The notes under the pieces: model-generated | What the model saw: the letters and a program-made list of their open reading frames with translations, nothing else | The model's database searches: none | What the model was told of the DNA's origin: nothing | Source: a virus | Taxonomy: Duplodnaviria; Caudoviricetes | IMG/VR virus record: IMGVR_UViG_3300020469_000055 | Location: 1-57,266 of that record | Direction: 5' to 3' (one strand) | Length of the DNA: 57,266 nt | Shown here: piece by piece, positions 28,758 to 49,678 of the stretch | Numbering within the stretch: position 1 is the first letter of the stretch | Layout of the letters: every line of letters starts with the position of its first letter | Position numbers and translations under genes: made by a program

Positions 28758-29108
28758 TCAGAGAAAAATATTTTCCTCAAGATCATTCATATAGGTTTCC
28801 ATGATGAGGTTTAGTTCCTTATCACCCCTCATGTCGGCTGGAGCCCAGTCGGATACAATGTCCATTTCGTTTTCTGGGATCATCAGGAAGCCGGTGTTCT
28901 TGCTAATATCATCAGACTCCTTGCTTACAATCATCTGGGAGTAATCCATAGACCAAAGGATTTCATTGGTCATTTCCAAGTCGTTATCTAGGCTGTAGTA
29001 GTAGTCATCCTCATCGTCATATAATGACACAACATAGTCATTATCTCGAAGCTCACGAACTAGTTCGGTAGTACGCTCAGTTAGATAGTTCTTTACAATA
29101 GGTCGCAT
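28758..29108 (-). CDS. Hypothetical acidic protein
   Basis: 116 aa, D/E-rich. Confidence 0.65.
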   Translation of the reverse strand: MRPIVKNYLTERTTELVRELRDNDYVVSLYDDEDDYYYSLDNDLEMTNEILWSMDYSQMIVSKESDDISKNTGFLMIPENEMDIVSDWAPADMRGDKELNLIMETYMNDLEENIFL

Positions 29109-30666: not shown

Positions 30667-30750
30667 TAGCCTCGGAGGGACTCGAACCCTCAAGACCCTA
30701 AGGTCGTCAGATTTTAAGTCTGATGCGTATGCCAATTCCGCCACAAGGCC
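30667..30750 (-). tRNA. tRNA-Leu(TAA)
   Basis: GGCCTTG acceptor stem, TCAGA-CTTAAAA-TCTGA anticodon arm, long variable arm, GGTTCGAGTCC; no encoded CCA. Confidence 0.95.
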
Positions 30751-31479: not shown

Positions 31480-31552
31480 TGCCCTCAGCAGGACTCGAAC
31501 CTGCGACCATCGGCTTAAAAGGCCGCTGCTCTACCAACTGAGCTATGAGGGC
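31480..31552 (-). tRNA. tRNA-Lys(TTT)
   Basis: GCCCTCA acceptor stem, TAGCTCAGTTGGTAGAGC D-arm, CGGC-CTTTTAA-GCCG anticodon arm, GGTTCGAGTCC. Confidence 0.96.
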
Positions 31553-35323: not shown

Positions 35324-35660
35324 GGAAATCCTCCAATCGGTTGAAACAAAAGTCATCAGTTGGTCCATACCAACATACATTCCAGCATTCAGTACCATTG
35401 TTACCAATGAGAACAGAGTAGATCGCTTCGTTATCTTCCGGATCACGGTCCGGAGGAAAGATCCATACACGAGCAGACTTCTTGGAAACGATATGTTTAT
35501 GGCAGTTACTAATTGTTATTTCATTATCTCCTTCATAATCTTCCCACTCAAGATTCATTTCAACCCGAAGCATGTATCCTCCACACAAAAGAGAACATAC
35601 CAGTGTATGCAATGCATCAAGACGATCAGAAGTCTTATCAAATTCATCTGCTGCGTGCAT
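35316..35660 (-). CDS. Hypothetical protein
   Basis: TAATG-coupled ORF. Confidence 0.6.
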   Translation of the reverse strand: MHAADEFDKTSDRLDALHTLVCSLLCGGYMLRVEMNLEWEDYEGDNEITISNCHKHIVSKKSARVWIFPPDRDPEDNEAIYSVLIGNNGTECWNVCWYGPTDDFCFNRLEDFRG

Positions 35661-35842
35661 TAAAAGCCTCCCATAATTTTAAGTCTACTCTTAACCTGTG
35701 CGATAGTCGCACCCTTGACCAATCGAGACGATCGTTTTCTCCCCTCTATCCAAAATCTCACACCCTCCGGGGTATTCTTCAAGATCACACGTTGGGTATG
35801 ACCGTCACAATCCCTCGTAATAATCACATCAGTCATCAGCAC
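35660..35842 (-). CDS. Hypothetical basic protein
   Basis: Coupled small ORF. Confidence 0.55.
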   Translation of the reverse strand: MLMTDVIITRDCDGHTQRVILKNTPEGVRFWIEGRKRSSRLVKGATIAQVKSRLKIMGGF

Positions 35843-36066: not shown

Positions 36067-36502
36067 TCACCTTAGCCATCGTACTAAGGCACCACGCCGC
36101 ATCAGCAGCCTGTTCATAGGTAGCGTACCTATAAACTTCATGCCCGAACACTTCCGGGCCGCCCTGACACGCCCCATCGGGAGCATATGCCGCCACCCAA
36201 CTCTCACGGGTCTCATGTACATGATACTCGTTTTCCAGTCGAACATCATCGAACAGGCGGTGAGCGATCACACATCGGTAATACGCACCTCGATTATATG
36301 ACTCCCATACCCTATCAAGGACATTGTTCCAGTTTGTATGTAGAAGACGTGTGATCCATCGGGGAGTAGGATCCCCGGTCGTCATCCTAGCACCCTCTCT
36401 CCGAAAAATCATTCTCTCCTCTTCACAAGCATCCTTGATCTCATAGATTCGTCTAACCCGTGCGATATCTCGATCGTTCCTACGCTTTTCGTCAGCGTTC
36501 AT
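36002..36502 (-). CDS. Hypothetical early protein
   Basis: ATG after a GGAGGT RBS. Confidence 0.7.
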   Translation of the reverse strand: MNADEKRRNDRDIARVRRIYEIKDACEEERMIFRREGARMTTGDPTPRWITRLLHTNWNNVLDRVWESYNRGAYYRCVIAHRLFDDVRLENEYHVHETRESWVAAYAPDGACQGGPEVFGHEVYRYATYEQAADAAWCLSTMAKVSDGVDGYETDVHIREVNNRKD

Positions 36503-36517
36503 ACTTGTGACCTCCAG

Positions 36518-36976
36518 TCAGAGCCATCGCACCAGCACGGACGACTCCCCGTGCATCAGGGTGCAGATCCGACGCCACCTTCGGGCGTCCTCGTTCATAC
36601 CGGGGAACACCCGGACACTCACACTACCGTCCCCCTTCACACACTCGATCTCGATCATTTCGTTCCTTTCCTCCAGCAAGCAGGAATAGTATGCTTAGAC
36701 ACATACCCATCACCTCTGGCTTGAACATATGCCCACGCCGCATCCTCAGTATCGAACCACGCGGACAACCCCGTTGAATCGATCACACCTATCCATATCG
36801 TTACTTCACACATTATCACACCTCCGAATCACGGTCAGTCCGCCACCCGACTTCACACGTCGAGTGATACGTCGGATGCGAGCCTTGTCGGCATCCGTAT
36901 TATCTTTGCTCCACCCTCTCACTTCCTTTTCCGAACGCTTCTCGAGGATAATCCGTGTGAGACTCTTTTTGTTCAT
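36518..36976 (-). other. Three tandem small ORFs (36518-36658, 36655-36813, 36806-36976; 46-56 aa)
   Basis: Manual translation; overlapping start and stop codons with AAGGA/GGAGG/GGAG RBSs. Confidence 0.55.
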
Positions 36977-37242
36977 ACGTCTGACTCCATTCTCGCACCC
37001 TTCCTACGGTTCTCTTCCATAGGTATGATGCGAAGGTTCGTGGGATGATGCGGCCCGCCACATGCGAGCGGCACGATATGATCCACCTCCCACCCCTCCG
37101 GGCAGGCCCGATAGATCGCGATGATCGCCGCGTACAATCGTGGCCGATCCGGACCTACGATACTACGCTTCGCAAGACCGTATGATCTCGCACGATCACG
37201 GGCCTTCCACTCATTCTTGCGAGCCGCTTCGCGAGTCTTCAT
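36973..37242 (-). CDS. HNH endonuclease
   Basis: CPEGWEVDHIVPLACGGPHHPTNLRIIPMEENRRKG. Confidence 0.88.
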   Translation of the reverse strand: MKTREAARKNEWKARDRARSYGLAKRSIVGPDRPRLYAAIIAIYRACPEGWEVDHIVPLACGGPHHPTNLRIIPMEENRRKGARMESDV

Positions 37243-37259
37243 AGGTATGATACTCCGGG

Positions 37260-37324
37260 TGGCAGGATCATCAGGCCGGGAATGCCAATCCCGACTTCCC
37301 CCGTATGCCCGGGGGATTCACCGT
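37260..37324 (-). ncRNA. Type II hammerhead ribozyme candidate (variant core)
   Basis: GGU-GAAU-CCCCCG[GGCAUA]CGGGGG-AA-GUCGGGA[UUGGCAU]UCCCGGC-CUGAUGA-UCC-UGCCA; loop-I UGGCA can pair with the 3' UGCCA; intergenic. Confidence 0.68.
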
Positions 37325-37335
37325 AGGTATGAGAG

Positions 37336-37821
37336 TCACTTGCCGATGAAGGACAGGTCGGGCTTGACACCCTTCCGGTGCTTCGAGATCGCATTCGCGA
37401 CCGATCCGACAGTCACACCCGCAGCCGCCGCGATGCGACGACGCTGCCGCTTGCCGATGATCGACTCCATGCGATCATACGCCTCCCACCGGGAGCCGTT
37501 GGACTTCTCGATACACTTCTCCCACACGGCAACATCATCCGTGTGAGTCTCCGGCTCGGGAGCCGGGGCGGGAGCCGGAGCCCCCGTGTGAGCCGCGAGA
37601 GCGGCAGCGACCGCCCGTGCGATCATACCGGCGATGTCCGGTTCGGTGGCCGGAGCCGGAGCCGGAGCGGGAGCCGGAGCCCCGTACGCACCGATCAGAG
37701 TCTTCCCCTTGCGGGCTCGAGACTCATTCCGGGCATGCCCCTCCGCAATCGCGACCGGATCGCCAGCCTTGATCAGGGAGACGAGATCCTTACGGGACAG
37801 CGAGATCATGGAACGCTTCAT
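37336..37821 (-). CDS. First early protein, with PA-repeat linkers and a C-terminal HTH-like segment
   Basis: GAAAGG RBS; two APAPAPAP tracts; RRRIAAAAGVTVGSVANAISKHRK. Confidence 0.75.
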   Translation of the reverse strand: MKRSMISLSRKDLVSLIKAGDPVAIAEGHARNESRARKGKTLIGAYGAPAPAPAPAPATEPDIAGMIARAVAAALAAHTGAPAPAPAPEPETHTDDVAVWEKCIEKSNGSRWEAYDRMESIIGKRQRRRIAAAAGVTVGSVANAISKHRKGVKPDLSFIGK

Positions 37822-37868
37822 ATGCATTACCTTTCGAACGAGGAAAGAAACAGGAATTGACACAAATC

Positions 37869-37897
37869 GGGCGGGGGTGGTCTCCCACCCCCAACCC
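37869..37897 (-). other. GNRA-capped GC-rich hairpin at the 3' end of the leader RNA (attenuator or stabiliser)
   Basis: GGGUUGGGGGUGG-GAGA-CCACCCCCGCCC followed by a U-rich stretch. Confidence 0.6.
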
Positions 37898-37900
37898 AGG

Positions 37901-37952
37901 GTCCGCATTAGAGTCGCGGTAGACTATGTCCGCATTAGAGTCGCGGTAGACT
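37901..37952. repeat. Perfect 25-bp tandem direct repeat (period 27)
   Basis: GTCCGCATTAGAGTCGCGGTAGACT at 37901-37925 and 37928-37952. Confidence 0.95.
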
Positions 37953-37954
37953 TG

Positions 37955-38651
37955 TGATGCCCCATCCGACCCGAGCATCATAGGTCCGGGATTCCAACCC
38001 CGTCGTTAAACGTATGAGACTCGATCCTCATCCGGTCTTCGGCTACTGCGATCCCCGATGATCGAGGCGAGAGTAGCATACTAGGCGGATGGACGGTAGT
38101 CGCATCATCATACGCTAGAATCATAGTTCGCCGATCATGCGTGGGGGCATAGGCCCTATCTCCTGTCCGCTCGCAACCACACCCCCAACATTCCCGATGG
38201 CACCATTCCGTGCCGAATCGGTTCCGCATACCTCGACGGCTCCGGAGGGTATGGGCGTACCATGATCCCGCCGATGGGCGTCGAGCGAAGTGTAGTATTG
38301 AGCGACCATTCATGGAGTGATACCGTGCCGGTCCCACTACCTGATCGAATTGAAGAATCCACCAACCCGCACCCATCGGTATACTACATCCGGTTCTGGT
38401 AAGGAAACGCTATCTGGTCGGTATCGGGAGTACCCTCCCGATACCTACAGCATAGGTATGATTCGAATCCTAGTCCGCCCGGTCGCATGATGCGAAAGGA
38501 AGCAGAGTCGAGTCTTCAACTGATTCGTGCGGGACTTTCTTCAGTGGCTCGGATCCCCTTCGACGGATCCCTTTGTAACCAATCCCGTGCCCCATTGCAC
38601 GAATTCGCTTGGATGTCGGACGAAGAGAAGGTACCAGATCCGGATTCGTAG
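37955..38651 (-). ncRNA. Large multi-domain structured RNA candidate (~700 nt)
   Basis: Four abutting domains, each closed by a long-range helix; mismatches are largely G-U on the minus strand; no credible protein-coding ORF. Confidence 0.65.
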
Positions 38652-38920
38652 GCTTGCTGCTGAAAAAAAGAGAAGAAATGTTGGCCCATCATCCCGGCAA
38701 GTATATCGGACCATCATACCGAAGCGGACCGAGGGGGGCCATGGGGGGTAGATCGTTGTTTGTTTTGTTTTGTGACCCCTTGTAAATTCTCGACCCCCTA
38801 GTCGATTTGGTATTCGTTAGATATGTACACGATTGACACGCCTGGGGGTCCCACCCCTGTTCCGTGGGTACTGTAACCACACGCTTTAGATATCCTAGGG
38901 GTCTATATAGCTTTCCTGCT

Positions 38921-38944
38921 TTCTATACTTTAGTCAATATGGAC
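38921..38944 (-). promoter_or_regulatory. Phage RNAP promoter, copy 3 (near the inferred genome termini)
   Basis: Identical 24-mer to 16718-16741. Confidence 0.8.
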
Positions 38945-39158
38945 ACATACCATCCATTCATCGGATATATGGATATAGTACAGCCCCGTAGGGCTAGTAA
39001 GTTATAATCTGTAAATCCATTCTAAGGGCCTGAAGTCCTGCCTTCTTGAGCTTGATAAGTGGTTACTCATCTTTCAGCTGAAGGCGTGTCTTAAGGCCCT
39101 GAGAGAGAATCCTATGGCCTCTCAGGGGTTATTGTGATATGGGCCTGTACCTGATATT

Positions 39159-39207
39159 CTCCTTCCCCAAGGCCCCCTCCGAAGAGGGGACCCCAGGGAC
39201 CAAGGAG
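39159..39207 (-). terminator. UUCG-capped long hairpin after the giant virion gene
   Basis: CUCCUU..CCCUGGGGUCCCCUC-UUCG-GAGGGG..CCUUGGGG..AAGGAG; lacks a U-tract. Confidence 0.5.
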
Positions 39208-39208
39208 A

Positions 39209-42200
39209 TTAGTTAAGTCGATCAGCCAAGCCCTCACTGGGAGAGCGTGGGGCTGACGGCTCAGGGCGTTGAAGAAGAGGAGGAGCTTTAGACTCCTGCT
39301 TCTTTTCGACTGGTTCTTCTTCCACGGGAGGCGGATTAGGAATTAATCGATCATCTGGGTAGTCAACTTCACTCCAGCCATGAGGCTGCTGAGCTGATCC
39401 CATCCACTTAATGTAACCTAAATCTTCCAGAGTAGGATGGCTTAGATAAGGAATATTACGACCTGATCCTGCTGTCATTGCAACAGAAGTAGCCTTCATT
39501 CCTTCTCTAAACGGAGCCTTTGAAAGCTGGAACGGTAAAGCATTAAATGGTAAAATTTCTCCAACAGTTTCAGCAACATCTGAAAAGGCAGAGCCTAAGC
39601 GTTTTTCTGCACCCGGACCACCGCCAACATATGATCCAATATTTCCAGCAAATCTAGAAAGACGACCATAAGTTTTCTGTACCATTGCAACAGCAGGGCT
39701 GCTAAATGGCCTAACCGGGAAATTACGCTCAGAGCTTTGCATAGCTCGGAGTACTGTATTGCCTACAATATCTCGCATATAAGGACCTACGCTTCCGAAT
39801 AAAGGACTGGAAAATCCGTAGGTTGCAAGAACTTCAATAACCTTATTCATGTCTGGCATGGTTGTAAGGTTTTCCATTGCTTGCTTTCTACGATCTTCGT
39901 CTTCTTTAAATAGAACCGCCTGAGCATTTCTATTAATATATTCAAAAGCAGTAAGGCTAGTTAAAATACCAGCCGTCATCATGGGTCCGCGAGCACGGAC
40001 ACCATTGCCAACCAGGGCTTGATAAGCCGCCATCGGATAAGACAGCATCTGGAAAAGCATGTCAACCAGAGGGTTCATTCCCTGGAATCGCATGGTGCCA
40101 CGAAGTTCAGGAGACATTTCCTGAGTTACAAACATAATATACTGATTAAGGGAGGGAAGAATAGAATCTTGAACTTTCATTCTATTTCTAGCAATATCAG
40201 AAAATTCTAGAGAAACTACTCCAGAATTAGCATCACTAGATCTCCCAGCAAGAGATTCTCCTAGCTCATTAAGATCAAGCTCTCGTCCAGCGGATCGAGT
40301 GTTTAATCCCGATGCAGACATAAGCTCTTCCATAATTCCAGGTCGAAGTAGTCCTGACTCAGCAGCATACGTCACTAAAGTTTGAGGAATACCCAACTCT
40401 CGAGCAATTCCCTGAATTTGTTTAAGGGTAAGCTCACGACCAGAAATTTCTTTAGAAAGAACAATTAGCTTATCTGAATGCTTAAGCAAAGTAGCTTTTG
40501 CCTGATTAGCCGCAACAGTACGAACAGCATTAGTAACCGGAAGCATGCCAGAAGCAAGACCAGTTAAATCTGCCGTAGCGCCTGTGAATGCTTCTACGCC
40601 ATCAGCCAACCTTTTAAGCCAACTAGGATCAGAATGTCCTTCTTGGGCTAATCCAGATCGAACATTATTTACATGAGTCTTCAACCTTTCGGCGACAGAT
40701 GTCATAAGCTCACCATCTTCCATAGCATCACCACCCGCACCAAACTTAGCCATAGAGCTAGATCTAAGGTTTTGTGTGGAGTATGCTAAGTCCTCAATTG
40801 TTTCTTTCATAATTCGTTTATCTAAGCCAAGAGAAGACATAAACTTTTGAACAGGCTTATACTTAACAGCTTCACCTCTAGCAGCATCTAATAGCGAGCC
40901 AGTAATGATTCCGGTATTTCGGATTAGCTTAAATGGATTTAATCCAGAAGTACGAAGAATAGTCATAGGAACTTCAACAAACAGAACCGACATTGCAAAC
41001 TTTGCTCCAAGAATAGAATAAGCAATGTTTTGAGTAATGCGGCTTGCCTGTGAAAACTCACGAGTACGCTGCGGATTAAATCCACGAGCACGTAAGTAAA
41101 GCTCGCGAAGGCTTTCCATATACTGGCTAACCTCACGATCATAATCCCTTTCAGTAATAGTTCGTTTCTTTCCTGTAGTATCGGTCTTAAGATTTAAGGT
41201 AAGAGAATTTTCAATCTCGTCAAACATATCGCTCATTGTTGCTCCCTTAAATCCAAAAAGATCATTAATAGCTTTTTGAATTCGAGTAGATGCAAGATGA
41301 GTATCAGCATACCGAATAATATGTTCCATTGAATTTCCTGCCTCAGCAAACAGGCTTGCTAATTCTTCTCCGCCCTCTCGAATAGAACCATCAGGATTAT
41401 CAAAATCACTAATGTTAAAAGTTCTATGGGGCATTCGAATATCATCAAGAGTTTTAATCTTAATATTTAAGTCACTGGGATTAGCCATATGACTATGCTT
41501 AAAGTTACCACCAGCATGATCAAGATAATCATATGCAGCAACTCTAAGAGGAGCCATAACTTTTCGTCCAACTTGCTCTAATCCTTTCATCCACTGTTCA
41601 GAGAAGATGTCCATATTATCGCCTTTAACGGCACTGGCATATAACTCAGCCAGCGTTCCTTTACCTGCAAGTCGATGGGCCTTATTAAAAGAACCGGCTT
41701 CAACCTGAGCTTCATTCTTTCTAGCAAAGTACTCATCAAGAGCATCAATAATATCAGACGGCTTTTTAGGATCGGGATCATCACCTGCACCGGCAGGAGA
41801 TTTTGGCGGCTTAGAAGGAGGAGCACCATCACCAGCATCAAGAGGCTTACGTGAACGGAAAGTAATTTCACTATTAATTTCATTATAAAGCGTACGCTCT
41901 TTAGAAGAAAGACTTCCTTCTTTACTAAGTTTTGCTTCCAAGCTAGAACCAATTTCAATTAACTCATCATCACTAAGTTCAGCAGGTTTTCTAGGAGCTG
42001 GTCCTTCCATGCTTTTAAATAATGCTTCGTTCGAAATATCATCTCGTTCTAACCTAGCCTGTGCTTCCTCTTCATACCTAGCTCTAAGATCTTTATCGCT
42101 AGGTCTGCGGAAATCTTGATTGTCACCATCAGCTAAACGCTGAGGACCAGTACGTCTGGTTTCAGCAATCTCTTCAGCCCGAAGACGAGCCTGTGCTTCC

Positions 42201-45200
42201 TCTTCATACCTAGCTCTAAGCTCTTTATCACTAGGCCTACGGAAGTCTTGGTCGTCACCATCAGCTAAACGCTGAGGACCAGTACGTCTGGTTTTAGCTG
42301 GGGCTTCGTCCGCAGCCTGCTCAGGAATATCTCCTGAATCCATAGACTTAGTAAGCTCTTGTTCCTGCTGACGAGCTACAAAGTAATCTTTGGCTTCTCG
42401 GGCAAACGAAACACCCTCACCTGGATTAGGCATATCCCAATCTCTAATGTTTTTCATAAACATCATGAGATCATCATAACTATCTACAATTTCATCAAAC
42501 TCTTCTTGGGTCATTCGAGTATAACCAGGAACACCTAAGAATTTAGTATCGGCAGCATTGTCATATTTATTGACAGTAGACTTAAGGGTAGCTTTAGTAT
42601 TACCAGCCGAAGTCTCAGCAATGTCATCAGCTACAGCAGGATGAGTAGTAACAATTTCATCTAGCTCTGCTTCTTCTCGCTGAGCTTTAAGTTTTGCTAA
42701 CTCATTTCTACCAAAAATCTTATCTTTTTCTGAAACTTCATCAACAACAACATTAGTTAATTTTCTAATATTTTTTAAATCAAAAACACCCTCGCTATGA
42801 TTATGGGTTCTAACCTGAGGTTCAGTTAATCCGGTTTCTTCCGCAATAGACGTAACTTGATTGTCTGTTAACTTATAACCACCTCGACCACCTGGCTCAA
42901 GTGTTCCTTCTCTAGATCTAAGAGCATCCATAAACTTTCGAGCATTTATTAATTTAACAGCCGCTTTTTGTGCCTCCGGAGAGGTAGAGTGCAATCCTGA
43001 ATCAATTAATACTGAAAGTTCTTCATCTGCTTCAGATAGATTTCTTAATACAACTTCATCAGATTTTGCAGAGCTTAAACTAATTTCAGCACTTTCGCCT
43101 CTTTCAACAAGCTTAGATCTTCCTGTAATCTGATTAAGCTCTTTTTCCTCAGCATTGGTTAAAGCTTTTCCAGACTTTTTCTTTTCAGATAAAATATCTT
43201 TCCTAGCTTTTTCTTCTTTAGTAATTCTGCTTTTAACTCGAAGTCCTTGTTCATCACCACTAGGACCACGTTTTGCAATAGTAAGAGTTTGATTTTTAAC
43301 TCCATTATTAGCAGCTAAGAAGATTTCATCTTGACTCATACGCCTTCCATTAATAGTAGGCCAAGCTTCGTCCTTAAACAGCTTTGCAAAAAGAACTTCA
43401 GTAAAAGCTTCAAGCTGTTTACTTAGAGTTCCATTTAACTTTCTACCATTAATAAATCTTTCGGTAACAGCATCAAGAGTTTCTTTAAGAAAAACTGGAT
43501 CACTAGCCTGCTCTTCAGTAGGCTCAGCTTGTTTACCGGACTTAGAAAACATTCCCTTAAACTTGCCTTTTTTCGGATCAGCAGGAGTTAAAGTTTTGTC
43601 TTCTTCCGTTACAATAGTTTCGCCCTTTGCTTTGACGGAATCTTCAATATCTGATCGCTTTCCCGAAACAACACGAGAAGGCTGAACCTTTCCGTCTTTA
43701 TCGGTTGTTCGAATCTTTAGAGTAACCTCAGGTTCTTCCTTAGGCTTAACAACCGTAACTTTTTTAGTCGTTGTTGCCGAAGAAGAAGTAGAAGTAGATG
43801 CATTGCTAACATCTCGAGCTTCAGTCGGACGCCAAGCCCGGCGATCAACATCATAATAAATCCTATTATTATCAATAAGATCTTGAATATGCTTTTCCAT
43901 TTCCGCTCGATTAGTTGCAACTAAACCACCGCCCCGCTGAGCGGTAATCATTCTTTCTGTAGAAGAGTCGATATTTGCAGCCCTAGCTTCAGGACCAGTA
44001 ATGGTTTCAAAGTTTCGAATAAACCAACCATTTTCATCTCCTACTCCAGAAGTATTTCGTTCAATTTCTAAAGGACGACCATTTACAGTAGTAACCTGAT
44101 AGGGATCACCATACTCATCTTTCTTTCGTTTAAAGTTAAAAGAAATTTTTTTAGGAGCCGCAGCTTCAGTTGGATCAGCCTCAGCAACCTTAGCCGCAGG
44201 CTTTTCTTCAACTGCCTTAGAAATAGGAGCATCTCTTACTCCAGGATCAACCTTAGTCTCAAGCCTTTGAAGAGTTTCATTGATCGAATCAATCTCTTGT
44301 TCAAGCTTAGTTAGCTGATCTTGAAGATCCACTTCTTTTCCTGCCACTTGAACTTTATTTCTCTTTTCGCTTAACTCCATTAGCTTACTAATTTGACTTT
44401 CATCCATATCATCTGGAGAAAGGTTTTGTAACTTAACAAAAGAATCATATTCTGACTCATTAAGACCACCCCGTCTTGCTAGTTCAAGAGCAAGATTAAG
44501 CTGTTCTTTTTTAGTAATCAATGATTTCTTATCCACAAGATAAGCAGCATCTCCATATTCATCAATCTTTTCTGCTTCAGTAATTCCAAAGGTTCGTTGA
44601 AGACGATCAGCAGGAGCGTCATCGGCAGAAAGATCATACCAGCTTTTAACTCCTGCTTTAATTGCCTTAAACTTTTCTTCTCCTAAAATCTCATAGCCAA
44701 TACTATCAGATTCTTTTTTAAGAATTGAAATATCTCCAATTAGTTTTTTAAAGAACTGACTAAACTTATGAAGAAATTCTTTAAGAGGTCCATTTTTCAT
44801 AGCAAGCTGATTACGTACAAGAGAAATTTCAGCTAAAGCAGCCGCAAACTCATGAACATTTGATAAGGCATATTCTACATTTCCAATACCAGCCCGTTCA
44901 AACAACCGACGAATTTCGTTTTCGCCATTTTTAGTTTGAACAAACAAAGCCTGAATAGTTGCCTGCATTTTTGCTGGAGCAGATAAAAAGCTTAGGTGAG
45001 CAGTTTCATGCACAAGAATTGATGCAACATTAAGAGCATCGCCATATTCAGTTTTTTCAAGCTCACGCAAAAGACTTAATCCAATTGTTCCTCCTTCAAC
45101 AGGACGACCATTGAAATCTTTTGTGCTCCTAGCAATTCCTAAAGTTCCTCCGTCTACAACAGAATCAAGATAAGTAAAAGTCATCCCCATCATTTTATGA

Positions 45201-48200
45201 GGATCAACATCAACAAAAGCCAGCATTACAACTCTAGCGGCATCTTCATCAAGAAAACCTTCTGCAATCAAATTGTCTAGTTTATTCAACAGGGATTCAT
45301 GTCCCTTTGATAATCCAGCATAAGACTCTCGACTAGAAACATACTTTAGCTTTTGATTCTGAGACATAGGCTTGCGCCGAAGTTTTACTTCTCCCGAAAT
45401 CATTTGCTCTCTAACTTCACTAACAATAGCATATCCTCGAACAGCCATTGCATTATCTAAATCTATTAACATATCCTTAATAGTAAATTCAGGATTTTCA
45501 AGATCATACAAAGCTCGTTCTTCAGCAGACATGCCATTTAACTGGTTATATGCTCGACGCATTTGGTTCATAAAAGAATCGGTATCAGCAACAGCATGTG
45601 CTACTCCAGTTGCAGTAGCAGCATCTACTGGATTTCTTCCTAAAGGTAAACCAAAATGATTTCCTCGCATTTCAAAATAATTATCTTGGAGTTTAGTAAT
45701 ATTTCCAGGATCTCGACGAATCCGTTCAATAACACCAAGCGATCTAGCAACCGCAGATCCAGTACCAGCTTCTCCGGTATCTAATCTTTTAAGACCCTCG
45801 TAACCTTCCTTAATTACGCTTTCAGCATACTTAATACTATCCTCTAAGTTTCCAATCCAAAAGGGAGAATCCTCAGGAACAATAAAGGGTTTATTTAAAA
45901 CAGGTTTACCCCCTGCTTCAACAACATCATTCTTTACGATTTTAATAAACCCAAGTGAATTAAGAACGTCTTTATCTAGAGTATTATTACCAGATAAAAG
46001 TTGATTCGTTCGGATTTGAACAAAGCCATCAACAAATTGTTTGGCTCGATCTGCACTTAATCCACCTCGAATCATGTTTGGAATATAACGAGCCGCATTC
46101 GTATTTGCAATAGGAGCACCAGCTTCGGCCATTTCATCCAAAGCTTTCTGCATGAAATTGGTATAAAGCTTTTGTACATTTTTAAGCTCAGTCTTTAGAG
46201 CATTAACATCACCACCAAAAACACGAATCATTTCTTCCGGCAATACGTCTTCATCAATATCCCCGATAAGCTTACCAAGCTGACGAAGCTTAAGAAAAAG
46301 GAAATCAAATTCTTTAAATGAGGGGCCGCCTAAACGAACTTTTAATCCATTGATATAGTTTACATAAGGCAAGGCTTCTCGGGAAGCTCCCTCAACAATT
46401 GCTTCGATTGACATAAAGTCAGTAGAGTTACTGTACACGCGGTTATTAATATGCTGTCCGGTAATAAAGTTTGAAAACCCACGAACAATACGGTTTCGAG
46501 ATCGGAATAATCTAGCCTGTTTAATAGGCCAGTTAACAGCGGCGCTTATGTTTCTTTCAATAAAATCACCAATAGAAGTTCCTTTAAAGATCGTACCAAG
46601 CCACCAACGATCCGTAGATCTTTCTCCAACCTTTAAAGCATCAGGCGACTGACTAAGAATAATTTTATCAACAGCATCCCTCAGCGCATTAGCCTTAAGA
46701 GCACTATTACGAGCCTTAAATGGAATATCATTTAAAACCTGAGCTGATAATCTTTCAAATGCTTCATCAACATCGATATTGATTCCAAGCTTCTTAGCCA
46801 GATCACGATAAATTCCTTTTCGTCGAGTAATTTCCTGGCTAATCTTTTTAGTAAAAGAAGACTCGTCTAATTTTGCGCCAGAAATTTTATTAAACTTTCG
46901 CCTAAGATTAGAACGAAACTTAGTAAAGTTACGGACATTTTGAACAACACCTGCTTCGTTTAAAAACTTACTGACATTAAAGGAGGACTTTACCGCATCA
47001 TATGCTTCAAGACCTTTACCCTCAGCAATTTGTTTAATAGCCTTCTTAATATCAGGATACCTTGCATTTAGTTTTGCAATTTCTTCTGCATTACCTACAA
47101 GCCCCTTATACTCTCGAGTATACTTCATAATCTGTTTGGCAGAAACACCAAGATCTAAAGCAACTCGAATTGCTCTTTCGTTTCGTAAAAGAGAAAAAGC
47201 ATTTTCAACTTTAAGCAAGTCCTGAAGAAAAGAATCTTTTCGAGCTTCAGTTCCTCGAGAAACAATATCATCAAGTCGCTTATTAAAAGCAAGTGTATCT
47301 GCTTCGCTTAGTCGCTTAGAGTTGTTTAGAATTTTTTGAGCACCCCTTAAACTTTTTTCATCGTTGATTCGAGGAATAAGTTTAAGTAGTTGATTTATTT
47401 CAGCTCTAGTTGCAGCAGGTTGACCAGGAATTCCAGAGTCTTTAAGTTTATTTAAAAGAGCTTTAAGAGTTACAGCTTCTTTGTCAGATAAAGCTTGTCG
47501 CCCAGATCCTCCTACAAATCTTTTAGCCGTATCAATTCCCTTAGACTTAAGAGTTCGATCTAGCATATCTAATCTTTGCTGAGCAGTTTCAGCTCCATCA
47601 GAAGCTAAATCCTTAGCTTCTCGGAAAACAGCTTGGATAATAGTATCAAACTCTTCCGTTCCAATTTGCGCACCAGCACCAAGCTTTTTTTGAATTCCAA
47701 AAACTAAGTCAACTGCATCAGCAGAAGAAAGACCATACTTCGCTAAAGTCTCAGAAGAAAATAAATCTTCAATAGTTTCGCTAAGATCTTCGCCTTCTTT
47801 TCGAATAACTAATAAAGGAATCGTTTCAGCTAAAACATCCTTAGCTTCTACTTCTCCTCTATTTAGTCGAATAGCAAGTCCTTGATTTTCAATATTAGAG
47901 AAAATCTGAGCGCCCTCAATTTCAGGAACTGTTGCTTCTCGTTCTGCTAAACGATTGAGGCCACGAACTTTAGCTGCTTCACCTAATGCTCCGGTATCAG
48001 CAACGTAGTCTGTCATGCGAGTAGCAACACGACTAGTACCACGAAAGGCAGGACCAATTCGATTAATCCCACCAGCAATACCAGCACCGCCAATAGCACC
48101 CATACCTCCATAAAGAGCCATGTTAGTATAAACACCTGTAAAGTCTAGCTCGGTTCTAGCACCTTCCATAATCAATGAAGTTTGTCCACCAATAGAAGCT

Positions 48201-49678
48201 GCATATCCTTCAGCCGCTCCTGCAACAAAACCATCGATGGCCGTGTATGCCATAATTTTTCCTACATTAGTAGCTCCTGCGGCAGTACCTGCGGAAAGTG
48301 CAGTACCAGCAAAAACACCTACTGGAACCGCACCTGTAAGAAAATACATGGCATAAGGATCATTAGCAATGTCTGCTTTAATCGTATCGCTTAAACGACG
48401 AGTCCAATTAAACCATCCATCATGATAATCTTTTTCAAACATCATTTCACGCAGATCCATAGCAGCTTGCTTTTGAGCCGACATATTTGCAGTCATCATA
48501 TAACTAAAAGGATTTGTTGTATTATCTGCTAGCATTTCATGAGTAATGCCAGCTTTCATAAGCAGTTCTTTTTCTGTATCTTCTAAGGTATCGTAAATTG
48601 TTTCTTTCCAGGAGTCATCAGTAACAACAACCCTAGATAACGCTTCTTCAAGAAAATCTGGTCCAACAGTCTCAGAAAGATTTTGAATTTGGATTGCTAA
48701 AAGTGCGGGATCTCCTGCTTTTTCATTATCTCCATTTAAAAGAAAATGAAGTTTTCTAATCGTTTGACGTTGTGCTTGTTCATAAACAAACTGCTTTGCA
48801 GATAGTCCACTTAGTCCTCGTTCATCTCTAGCCTGATAATCAAGCATTTGCCAAAGAGTGCTATCAAATCGATCTAAATCATCATCTGCTAGTAATACAT
48901 CATTTATTCCAGATTGATATAAACGACTTACTAATTCTTTACGCTCTTCTTCAGTTCCAGCAGTTGCTGCATTAAACTCTGGCTCTGAAAGTCTATCAAG
49001 CTGATAAGCTGCTTCAATATAACTTTCTTGGTAGGAATTAGATCCTCTATTTCTACTTCTTCTATAGGAAGAATCAACCATACTTTCATCACCGCCTCTT
49101 GCTAAAAACTTTTGTTTATACAGCTCATAAGCTTTAGCATTTAAAAGTCCAGCCCAATTTCGCTCATTGTTTCCTGCAATAGCAATAGTACTTCGATCTT
49201 CGCCAGCTCGACCATCTTGATATAAGCTAACGCTAGGACGAATTCCAATAGATCCGCCTAAGTCTATGACTTCCCTAATTGCATTGTCTTTTGAAAAAGC
49301 ATTGTTTGCTAAAGAAGAAGCAAGAGATTCTCCGAAGTAAGAAGTAAAAAATTTCTGCGTAACATTTCTACGAGCTAAACGAGCGCTGTTATTATTATCC
49401 ATAGAAATGTTTGCGCCACTAATTCCTGCACTACTAGAATCCATATCTGGAGTAATAGCATGATACAGTTCAGATAAAGCACCCGTATTAAACTGATCTG
49501 GATATTGGGTTTTAAGGCTCAAGAAGTCTACATCATCACCATACATAAACCCACCCTTACCATCGGGCATAATTCTTTTTTCTCCTAGCTCAAAACGAGG
49601 AGGAGTAATTGGATCAGTAATGTAGTCGCCTAAAATATTAACTCTATCTTGAGTCATTCGATTGGCATAAATAGACAT
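39209..49678 (-). CDS. Giant internal virion (ejection) protein, gp16-like, with a zincin metallopeptidase motif
   Basis: 3489 aa; last of three internal-virion-like genes; VHETAH...NVHEFAA; Gly/Ala hydrophobic segments near the N-terminus. Confidence 0.75.
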   Translation of the reverse strand: MSIYANRMTQDRVNILGDYITDPITPPRFELGEKRIMPDGKGGFMYGDDVDFLSLKTQYPDQFNTGALSELYHAITPDMDSSSAGISGANISMDNNNSARLARRNVTQKFFTSYFGESLASSLANNAFSKDNAIREVIDLGGSIGIRPSVSLYQDGRAGEDRSTIAIAGNNERNWAGLLNAKAYELYKQKFLARGGDESMVDSSYRRSRNRGSNSYQESYIEAAYQLDRLSEPEFNAATAGTEEERKELVSRLYQSGINDVLLADDDLDRFDSTLWQMLDYQARDERGLSGLSAKQFVYEQAQRQTIRKLHFLLNGDNEKAGDPALLAIQIQNLSETVGPDFLEEALSRVVVTDDSWKETIYDTLEDTEKELLMKAGITHEMLADNTTNPFSYMMTANMSAQKQAAMDLREMMFEKDYHDGWFNWTRRLSDTIKADIANDPYAMYFLTGAVPVGVFAGTALSAGTAAGATNVGKIMAYTAIDGFVAGAAEGYAASIGGQTSLIMEGARTELDFTGVYTNMALYGGMGAIGGAGIAGGINRIGPAFRGTSRVATRMTDYVADTGALGEAAKVRGLNRLAEREATVPEIEGAQIFSNIENQGLAIRLNRGEVEAKDVLAETIPLLVIRKEGEDLSETIEDLFSSETLAKYGLSSADAVDLVFGIQKKLGAGAQIGTEEFDTIIQAVFREAKDLASDGAETAQQRLDMLDRTLKSKGIDTAKRFVGGSGRQALSDKEAVTLKALLNKLKDSGIPGQPAATRAEINQLLKLIPRINDEKSLRGAQKILNNSKRLSEADTLAFNKRLDDIVSRGTEARKDSFLQDLLKVENAFSLLRNERAIRVALDLGVSAKQIMKYTREYKGLVGNAEEIAKLNARYPDIKKAIKQIAEGKGLEAYDAVKSSFNVSKFLNEAGVVQNVRNFTKFRSNLRRKFNKISGAKLDESSFTKKISQEITRRKGIYRDLAKKLGINIDVDEAFERLSAQVLNDIPFKARNSALKANALRDAVDKIILSQSPDALKVGERSTDRWWLGTIFKGTSIGDFIERNISAAVNWPIKQARLFRSRNRIVRGFSNFITGQHINNRVYSNSTDFMSIEAIVEGASREALPYVNYINGLKVRLGGPSFKEFDFLFLKLRQLGKLIGDIDEDVLPEEMIRVFGGDVNALKTELKNVQKLYTNFMQKALDEMAEAGAPIANTNAARYIPNMIRGGLSADRAKQFVDGFVQIRTNQLLSGNNTLDKDVLNSLGFIKIVKNDVVEAGGKPVLNKPFIVPEDSPFWIGNLEDSIKYAESVIKEGYEGLKRLDTGEAGTGSAVARSLGVIERIRRDPGNITKLQDNYFEMRGNHFGLPLGRNPVDAATATGVAHAVADTDSFMNQMRRAYNQLNGMSAEERALYDLENPEFTIKDMLIDLDNAMAVRGYAIVSEVREQMISGEVKLRRKPMSQNQKLKYVSSRESYAGLSKGHESLLNKLDNLIAEGFLDEDAARVVMLAFVDVDPHKMMGMTFTYLDSVVDGGTLGIARSTKDFNGRPVEGGTIGLSLLRELEKTEYGDALNVASILVHETAHLSFLSAPAKMQATIQALFVQTKNGENEIRRLFERAGIGNVEYALSNVHEFAAALAEISLVRNQLAMKNGPLKEFLHKFSQFFKKLIGDISILKKESDSIGYEILGEEKFKAIKAGVKSWYDLSADDAPADRLQRTFGITEAEKIDEYGDAAYLVDKKSLITKKEQLNLALELARRGGLNESEYDSFVKLQNLSPDDMDESQISKLMELSEKRNKVQVAGKEVDLQDQLTKLEQEIDSINETLQRLETKVDPGVRDAPISKAVEEKPAAKVAEADPTEAAAPKKISFNFKRKKDEYGDPYQVTTVNGRPLEIERNTSGVGDENGWFIRNFETITGPEARAANIDSSTERMITAQRGGGLVATNRAEMEKHIQDLIDNNRIYYDVDRRAWRPTEARDVSNASTSTSSSATTTKKVTVVKPKEEPEVTLKIRTTDKDGKVQPSRVVSGKRSDIEDSVKAKGETIVTEEDKTLTPADPKKGKFKGMFSKSGKQAEPTEEQASDPVFLKETLDAVTERFINGRKLNGTLSKQLEAFTEVLFAKLFKDEAWPTINGRRMSQDEIFLAANNGVKNQTLTIAKRGPSGDEQGLRVKSRITKEEKARKDILSEKKKSGKALTNAEEKELNQITGRSKLVERGESAEISLSSAKSDEVVLRNLSEADEELSVLIDSGLHSTSPEAQKAAVKLINARKFMDALRSREGTLEPGGRGGYKLTDNQVTSIAEETGLTEPQVRTHNHSEGVFDLKNIRKLTNVVVDEVSEKDKIFGRNELAKLKAQREEAELDEIVTTHPAVADDIAETSAGNTKATLKSTVNKYDNAADTKFLGVPGYTRMTQEEFDEIVDSYDDLMMFMKNIRDWDMPNPGEGVSFAREAKDYFVARQQEQELTKSMDSGDIPEQAADEAPAKTRRTGPQRLADGDDQDFRRPSDKELRARYEEEAQARLRAEEIAETRRTGPQRLADGDNQDFRRPSDKDLRARYEEEAQARLERDDISNEALFKSMEGPAPRKPAELSDDELIEIGSSLEAKLSKEGSLSSKERTLYNEINSEITFRSRKPLDAGDGAPPSKPPKSPAGAGDDPDPKKPSDIIDALDEYFARKNEAQVEAGSFNKAHRLAGKGTLAELYASAVKGDNMDIFSEQWMKGLEQVGRKVMAPLRVAAYDYLDHAGGNFKHSHMANPSDLNIKIKTLDDIRMPHRTFNISDFDNPDGSIREGGEELASLFAEAGNSMEHIIRYADTHLASTRIQKAINDLFGFKGATMSDMFDEIENSLTLNLKTDTTGKKRTITERDYDREVSQYMESLRELYLRARGFNPQRTREFSQASRITQNIAYSILGAKFAMSVLFVEVPMTILRTSGLNPFKLIRNTGIITGSLLDAARGEAVKYKPVQKFMSSLGLDKRIMKETIEDLAYSTQNLRSSSMAKFGAGGDAMEDGELMTSVAERLKTHVNNVRSGLAQEGHSDPSWLKRLADGVEAFTGATADLTGLASGMLPVTNAVRTVAANQAKATLLKHSDKLIVLSKEISGRELTLKQIQGIARELGIPQTLVTYAAESGLLRPGIMEELMSASGLNTRSAGRELDLNELGESLAGRSSDANSGVVSLEFSDIARNRMKVQDSILPSLNQYIMFVTQEMSPELRGTMRFQGMNPLVDMLFQMLSYPMAAYQALVGNGVRARGPMMTAGILTSLTAFEYINRNAQAVLFKEDEDRRKQAMENLTTMPDMNKVIEVLATYGFSSPLFGSVGPYMRDIVGNTVLRAMQSSERNFPVRPFSSPAVAMVQKTYGRLSRFAGNIGSYVGGGPGAEKRLGSAFSDVAETVGEILPFNALPFQLSKAPFREGMKATSVAMTAGSGRNIPYLSHPTLEDLGYIKWMGSAQQPHGWSEVDYPDDRLIPNPPPVEEEPVEKKQESKAPPLLQRPEPSAPRSPSEGLADRLN
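42057..42294. repeat. Intragenic tandem duplication, period 132 nt (44 aa)
   Basis: TRRTGPQRLADGD(D/N)QDFRRPSDK(E/D)LRARYEEEAQARL occurs twice. Confidence 0.92.

Follow-up and report, generated by a model that had tools for sequence, protein, structure and literature searches.

Type II hammerheads and transcript processing in phages

In bacteriophage T7 the polycistronic early transcript is cut into smaller mRNAs at RNase III processing sites that lie between the early genes, and the products end and start in hairpins. Self-cleaving RNAs provide a further means of dividing phage messages. Type II hammerhead ribozymes, in which loop I forms a pseudoknot with the 3' tail, have been described by Perreault et al. 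(2011; PMC3088659), and that paper reports clusters of phage hammerheads that flank single genes, which were suggested to cut long transcripts into gene-length mRNAs.

Departures from the hammerhead consensus are also on record in the same paper. The pair at positions 15.1-16.1 is there said to be 'usually considered essential', and earlier data are cited in which 15.1/16.1 mutants were at least 10-fold slower, together with a natural U15.1-A16.1 hammerhead that cleaves itself less efficiently, at a low but detectable level (PMC3088659). Stems II that begin with U10.1-U11.1 are likewise reported, with U.U as the best-tolerated mismatch at 10.1-11.1 (PMC3088659). The G10.1-C11.1 pair is the most conserved one of type II hammerheads after 15.1-16.1, but it is not absolute. 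The NUH requirement at the site of cleavage was widened to NHH by Kore et al. (1998), according to PMC3884650. A full-text literature search for U15.1-A16.1 hammerheads returned Perreault et al. (2011; PMC3088659) as the sole match.

Genome setting of the motif

The window, by which is meant the whole stretch of DNA analysed here, is a complete virus record of 57,266 bp with direct terminal repeats, and all of its long open reading frames (ORFs) are carried on the minus strand. Pfam and PHROG searches identify genes for a single-subunit RNA polymerase, for a primase/helicase of the T7 type and for a nozzle protein, and the phage is therefore regarded as T7-like. Its DNA is present in marine metagenomes from many studies. 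Whilst the G+C content of the genome is about 40%, that of an island at about 36.5–39 kb reaches 52–62%, and the gene content of this island is mosaic relative to that of a diverged relative, the locus L188. The island (36500-39000) holds the leader region, an ORF of 190 amino acids, the hammerhead-like motif and an HNH gene.

Read along the minus strand, the order is a giant ORF ending at 39209, then some 1.3 kb in which no ORF is credible, the 190-aa ORF, the motif, the HNH gene and then small genes, which agrees with the original prediction that the motif follows a long non-coding leader and a first ORF. A search with the covariance model R1, described below, found a single copy of the motif in the 57-kb genome. 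The giant ORF (3,489 aa, 39209-49678, minus strand) is assumed to encode a giant internal virion protein, and its C-terminal 399 aa, used as the query in a search for homologous loci by protein, found no relative. Upstream of it is a 998-aa ORF without a Pfam or PHROG match. Two tRNA genes are located on the minus strand at 31480-31552 (75.6 bits) and at 30667-30750 (56.6 bits), the latter with a long variable arm. Comparison of 36800-37800 with phages by blastn matched a low-complexity stretch alone.

Architecture of the motif

The motif has the layout of a type II hammerhead, that is a three-way junction in which stems I and III are capped by loops and stem II is open, and its elements are listed in Table 1. 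The CUGAUGA and GAA parts of the core, the identity of position 17 as H (A37296, not G) and a pseudoknot of at least 4 bp between loop I and the tail are all as in the Rfam family Hammerhead_II (RF02276). The motif departs from that family at three points, namely the 15.1-16.1 pair, which is U-A and not A-U, the 10.1-11.1 pair, which is U.U and not G-C, and the score, which is under the gathering value of 37 bits. As it thereby lacks two of the strict features of the consensus and scores below the Rfam threshold, the motif is not filed as a consensus member. Stem II is reduced to three positions, U.U (U37267.U37320) followed by two C-G pairs.

Table 1. Elements of the hammerhead-like motif and the genes on either side of it
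Feature	Position	Strand	Evidence
Whole type II hammerhead-like motif, 68 nt	37256..37323	-	Rfam RF02276 (37323..37257) and model R1 (37323..37256)
Stem II 3' strand GGU (G11.3 G11.2 U11.1)	37320..37322	-	Sequence; RF02276 and R1 alignments
Core GAA (G12 A13 A14)	37317..37319	-	Sequence; GAA invariant in 134/134 complete viral hammerheads
Stem III hairpin, 7 bp (37316-37310 / 37303-37297), 6-nt loop (37309-37304)	37297..37316	-	Sequence; minimum-free-energy fold
Flipped pair closing stem III, U15.1-A16.1	37316 (U15.1), 37297 (A16.1)	-	Sequence
Predicted cleavage site, 3' of A17 and 5' of G1.1	37296 (A17), 37295 (G1.1)	-	Alignment to family consensus
Stem I hairpin, 7 bp with one G.U (37295-37289 / 37281-37275), loop UUGGCAU (37288-37282)	37275..37295	-	Sequence; minimum-free-energy fold
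Core CUGAUGA (C3 U4 G5 A6 U7 G8 A9)	37268..37274	-	Sequence
Stem II 5' strand UCC (U10.1 C10.2 C10.3)	37265..37267	-	Sequence
3' tail UGCCA, 5-bp pseudoknot partner of UGGCA in loop I (37287-37283)	37260..37264	-	Sequence
Upstream ORF, 190 aa as listed	37336..37908	-	Stop codon 13 nt ahead of motif
HNH / endonuclease VII-like gene, 89 aa	36973..37242	-	Pfam HNH E 0.0014 (below cut-off); PHROG 1035 endonuclease VII E 3.6e-11

The original prediction, which had been made from the letters of the sequence, holds up well at this level. The intact CUGAUGA and GAA elements, the two 7-bp stems and the 5-bp UGGCA/UGCCA pseudoknot are all where it had placed them, the flipped 15.1-16.1 pair and the minimal stem II (U-U plus two C-G pairs) are present in the sequence, and the cleavage site that it put between 37296 and 37295 is the one to be predicted from alignment to the consensus. 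The departures from consensus to which it drew attention are real but not new, both having precedents in PMC3088659. Each deviation thus has a published precedent, and a single motif of this sort is not a new kind of element.

A copy of the motif is found unchanged in a DNA contig (X10) that spans 37032-37408. Among the contigs listed for 36400-39300, from RNA libraries (runs X6 and X8, one sample) and from DNA (X10 and X11), none of the RNA contigs covers 37211-37340; their stops vary from run to run, and such contigs cannot show RNA ends. Folding of 101 nt around the motif gives a structure that is no more stable than those of shuffled sequences (z -0.96), and in the minimum-free-energy fold the UCC of stem II is paired with the GGA of the GGAG that precedes the HNH gene. 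This alternative UCC/GGA fold was considered as a conserved switch and rejected, as its outer pairs are not kept in the alignment with L188.

Scores against Rfam and a viral covariance model

All 66 positions of the Hammerhead_II model (1-66) align with the motif, at a score of 20.7 bits compared with the gathering score of 37. The significance of the match depends on the search space, with an E-value of 0.00275 when this one family is searched against the whole 57-kb genome, and of 0.061 in 301 nt and 0.85 in 4.2 kb when all 4227 Rfam families are considered. At the Rfam gathering thresholds the motif is not reported and the two tRNAs alone are found in the window. The assignment to Hammerhead_II that had been proposed is hence matched by a full-length alignment, but by one that is under the cut-off. 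Of 14 control genomes, 11 also contain sub-threshold matches to RF02276 when E-values up to 10 are admitted, and for this reason the Rfam score taken alone is no more than suggestive.

A pattern derived from loop I, the core and the tail of the window motif was found at 75 sites in 61 viral loci, most of which are textbook type II hammerheads. The covariance model R1 was built from 45 of the viral type II hammerheads, none of them from the window. It gives the motif 57.0 bits (E 2.4e-11), with 12.2 bits for the runner-up in the window, although the score is inflated and partly circular since the training set was picked with a 17-base pattern copied from the window. Two other R1 matches, at 42167..42117 (E 0.69) and 28968..28897 (E 0.9), were dismissed as chance; both are inside ORFs and the first is without an intact core. 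Perreault et al. (2011) name four sources for their Figure S6, and in one of these, phage PaP3, Rfam found no hammerhead at E up to 1 and no R1 match exceeded 10.5 bits.

Comparison with viral type II hammerheads

R1 finds 157 matches in 61 viral loci. Alignment of the best 150 of these 157 yields 135 unique sequences, of which 134 are complete at 15.1-16.1 and one is cut off. Among the best 150 of the 157 matches the 15.1-16.1 pair is A-U in all 134 complete hammerheads, and the flipped form is found in none of them. The 10.1-11.1 pair is more variable across the 135 sequences, with G-C in 128, U.U in three, G.U in two and a gap in two, as is position 17 (C in 122, A in eight and U in five). 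The loop sequence UUGGCAU of the window motif is common to dozens of viral hammerheads.

The three viral cases with U.U (L063:1031, L045:1078 and L013:10546) all have A17, a stem II made of U.U and two Watson-Crick pairs, and the same loop and tail; their A15.1-U16.1 pair is canonical. As they share both A17 and the short stem II with the window, the minimal stem II belongs to a natural subclass. These three loci and the U10.1-U11.1 hammerheads in Figure 5 of Perreault et al. (2011; PMC3088659) therefore have the U.U in common with the window, whereas the three loci keep the canonical A15.1-U16.1. The natural U15.1-A16.1 hammerhead of the same paper has the flip in common with the window, to which the window adds U.U at 10.1-11.1. 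The only feature of the window motif that is absent from the viral set is the flip at 15.1-16.1.

Relative to the RF02276 type II hammerheads of bacteria and phages, the window motif has the same topology, CUGAUGA and GAA elements, H17, short stem II, pseudoknot and intergenic position in a phage operon. It differs in the two altered pairs, in its score and in being a single copy rather than a member of an array.

Recurrence of the flipped pair

In a direct scan of viral contigs for flipped forms, none of the 119 loci listed had a 7/7 stem I together with U-A closure of stem III, and the pattern used below for metagenome contigs gave no credible case in the 19 loci that it returned from genome contigs. 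A scan of metagenome contigs, which required A at 16.1 together with the loop and tail signature of the window, returned 45 sites in 37 loci. Complete hammerheads account for 15 of these sites, in seven of the 37 loci; each combines GAAU...A-H with a stem I paired at 7/7 positions and at least 7 bp of stem III. They are distributed as two in L186, one each in L187, L188 and L204, four each in L190 and L210, and two in L213. As the flip is found repeatedly in metagenome loci and no credible case is among the loci listed for viral and genome contigs, it can be described as rare but not as a one-off.

The remaining 30 of the 45 metagenome sites are chance matches. One of these, L193 1652-1704 on the minus strand, has a stem I, CUGAUGA, UCC and the UGCCA tail with no GAA or stem III, scores 27.6 bits with R1 and may be a truncated hammerhead.

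Among the seven loci, L204 is not independent, since over 1,079 nt it does not differ from the window, and the flipped copies fall in five separate groups of contigs. The flipped hammerheads of L186, L187, L190, L210 and L213 have the GAAU...A-H arrangement, the core, the 7-bp stem I and the pseudoknot in common with the window. They differ from it in having unrelated gene contexts and mostly G-C at 10.1-11.1, with U.U shared by L187. This last locus has the same double variant as the window (U-A with U.U and A17), within different stems and an unrelated gene context. One flipped copy, L186:377-442, passes the Rfam cut-off with 39.3 bits, and the two flipped copies of L213 miss it by less than 1 bit. 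In hammerhead search rules A15.1-U16.1 is treated as invariant, and as a consequence flipped copies are filtered out and fall below the Rfam threshold.

Within arrays, R1 identifies 10 hammerheads in L210 and six in L190; taken together these comprise eight flipped and seven canonical copies and one that is cut off. In both loci flipped (U-A) and canonical (A-U) copies alternate in equivalent intergenic slots, and in L210 the hammerheads occupy successive gaps between minus-strand ORFs. The arrays are dense, with 10 copies in 7.3 kb in L210 (1-7327) and six in 4 kb in L190 (1-4034). The flipped copy L210:73-148 resembles a canonical neighbour, L210:6294-6371, from which the A15.1-U16.1 pair has been lost.

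An alignment of 25 rows, 24 of them distinct, has 97.8% of its cells paired, and 14 of its 16 pairs change on both sides. This level of pairing was reached by none of 500 shuffles, and slid controls gave 33–54%; the fitting of the alignment to the model works in its favour.

Conservation in a diverged relative

In the locus L188 the motif is retained next to sequence that has diverged to very different extents. Identity with the window is 154 of 228 nt (68%, plus 24 gap columns) in the 3' part of the upstream ORF, 27 of 30 in the stretch of 30 nt that precedes the motif, 65 of 68 in the motif itself, 257 of 277 in the HNH gene and its leader, and 71 of 142 in the region after HNH. Of the three changes in the motif, two are in loop III (37309-37304) and one is after the pseudoknot tail, so that none is at a constrained position; the probability that three random changes would all land in the 14 unconstrained positions of the motif is 0.007. 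The core is hence retained in this homologous intergenic region. The motif is far better conserved than the upstream ORF (Fisher p 5e-7). Its divergence (3/68) is not below that of HNH (20/277; p 0.59), and conservation alone therefore does not single out the motif from the HNH module.

L188 also bears on which gene the motif belongs to. About 400 nt with two small genes, one of them homologous to the window ORF 35842..35660, separate the motif from HNH in this locus, and the 5' flank of the motif and the end of the upstream gene remain attached. From the intervention of two genes before HNH it follows that the ribozyme is tied to the 3' end of the upstream gene and not to HNH. The link to HNH that was proposed for the window is hence correct as far as adjacency goes, but this adjacency is not conserved.

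Proposed action and alternative explanations

The motif is best described as a cis-acting type II hammerhead candidate of a phage and metagenome lineage, with the UGGCA/UGCCA loop-tail pseudoknot and two rare core-adjacent variations. It would be transcribed within a minus-strand early transcript that carries the leader, the first ORF, the ribozyme, HNH and the small genes, and the RNA is predicted to fold into a three-way junction that most likely cleaves 3' of A37296. Of the two resulting mRNAs, the upstream one would carry the stem III hairpin and a 2',3'-cyclic phosphate at its 3' end, and the downstream one would open with G37295, bearing a 5'-OH, and with the stem I hairpin, 39 nt upstream of the GGAG of the next gene. 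Cleavage would in this way separate the mRNA of the first early gene from the downstream genes, at a rate that is expected to be below that of consensus hammerheads. As at the RNase III sites of T7, the early transcript would be split, but by predicted self-cleavage without a host enzyme, with 5'-OH and cyclic-phosphate ends and at one site in the genome. That such cleavage would replace RNase III processing, as the original prediction proposed, is an inference.

That the motif is a working, though probably slow, self-cleaving type II hammerhead is the best reading of these observations and is held with somewhat better than even confidence. It is suggested by the intact remainder of the core, the double change that preserves pairing, the pattern of conservation and the recurrence of the flip. 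The two altered pairs are the two most conserved ones of the family. This is where a descendant of a hammerhead that is catalytically dead, or negligibly active, has to be considered, either as a relic of hitch-hiking or recent acquisition or as a folded RNA with a role other than cleavage, for instance as a pair of hairpins that stabilises mRNA, as a spacer or as a junction at which gene modules recombine. The alteration of both A15.1-U16.1 and G10.1-C11.1 points in that direction, given losses of at least 10-fold and a natural flip with 'low, but detectable' activity in the literature (PMC3088659). So do the single copy in the genome, the location in a GC-rich island whose boundaries, when compared with L188, are mosaic, the copies of the 9-nt direct repeat TCATACCTA on either side, and a divergence in L188 no lower than that of HNH. 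Against such a derivative stand the intact state of the remaining ten nucleotides of the core, of the two 7-bp stems and of the 5-bp pseudoknot, and the changes in L188, which avoid every constrained position (p 0.007). The double change at 15.1/16.1 keeps the pairing, and the flip recurs in five contig groups with compensatory changes in the stems and in array slots that it has in common with canonical copies. A dead or non-cleaving derivative, the main rival, is accordingly considered unlikely, albeit with a weight that is far from negligible.

A ribozyme dedicated to HNH, the expression of which the original prediction thought it could control, acting as a switch or to tune expression, or forming one mobile unit with that gene, would account for a motif whose end lies 14 nt from the start codon of HNH, with GGAG right after its tail, and for the fold in which UCC is paired with GGA. 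The ribozyme and HNH are however parted by two genes (about 400 nt) in L188, where the 5' flank stays attached to the motif, the alternative UCC/GGA hairpin is not conserved there on inspection of the alignment, and L002, a more distant HNH relative (52% identity), is without a hammerhead nearby, so this explanation is improbable. An accidental likeness, such as two unrelated hairpins that happen to stand with a CUGAUGA in an intergenic region rich in G+C, could be argued from the sub-threshold Rfam score (E 0.85 for 4.2 kb and all families), the fact that 11 of the 14 control genomes have matches too (E up to 10) and the unexceptional stability of the 101-nt fold (z -0.96). It is effectively refuted by a full-length alignment with every element in register, by loop and tail sequences identical to those of a large set of genuine hammerheads, by the gap between 57.0 bits and the next best R1 match in the window, and by the conservation in L188 and the return of the double variant in L187, and is given almost no weight.

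The motif is thus a real, moderately unusual ribozyme candidate, and the flip would appear to be tolerated and is probably selected, in view of its conservation in L188, its recurrence in five contig groups and the array slots common to flipped and canonical copies. It is possible, if doubtful, that U15.1-A16.1 marks a maintained subclass with deliberately slower or condition-dependent cleavage, which is used beside fast canonical copies to stage the release of messages, and that the window carries a doubly attenuated copy (U-A and U.U) which times the separation of the first early gene. If cleavage is confirmed, the rules for hammerhead annotation should be relaxed, flipped and canonical pairs in one array would represent a natural system in which to ask whether phages tune the kinetics of mRNA processing, and the early transcript of this phage would contain a host-independent processing site.

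Flanking genes and repeats

The upstream ORF probably starts at the ATG at 37821, to give a protein of 161 aa. It contains Ala-Pro repeats, and a terminator-like hairpin (37890..37869) lies inside its longer reading. Pfam and PHROG gave no family for it and the viral contigs no relative; its homologue in L188 is 54% identical over 76 aa. A structure atlas look-up returned matches at TM 0.24–0.35 alone, some of them helix-turn-helix-like, from which no family could be named.

The start codon of HNH is 14 nt past the end of the motif, and its GGAG (37256-37253) comes directly after the tail. The HNH protein of L188 is 96.7% identical to that of the window, whilst the more distant relative in L002 (52% identity), the sole match among viral loci, has no hammerhead nearby. 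A tblastn search of HNH against phages returned 16 records, all below 60% identity.

The region 37870-38615 (minus strand) is GC-rich and without a credible ORF, and in the RNA-library contigs of one sample it is about 20-fold deeper than its neighbours, with a depth of 91–127 over 37885/37998-38418 compared with 5–6 for the flanking genes. The deep stretch ends near the terminator-like hairpin at 37890..37869 and folds better than shuffled sequences (z -3.1, 0/20). It has no Rfam match and no blastn match in phages, and may represent an abundant structured phage RNA. Just upstream of the hairpin a 25-nt unit is directly repeated in tandem without a mismatch (37901-37925 and 37928-37952).

Further repeats surround the motif itself. 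The two copies of the 9-nt direct repeat TCATACCTA are at 37332-37324 and 37250-37242, and their arrangement looks like a target-site duplication or a module junction; both copies are kept in L188 in altered form. The 12-mer ATCATACCTATG occurs on the minus strand in three copies within 1.5 kb, at 38451-38462 before a 2-codon mini-ORF, at 37240-37251 at the HNH start and at 37018-37029 inside HNH, and a near copy of it, CTCATACCTACG, is found immediately 5' of the ribozyme motif (37322-37333, minus strand).
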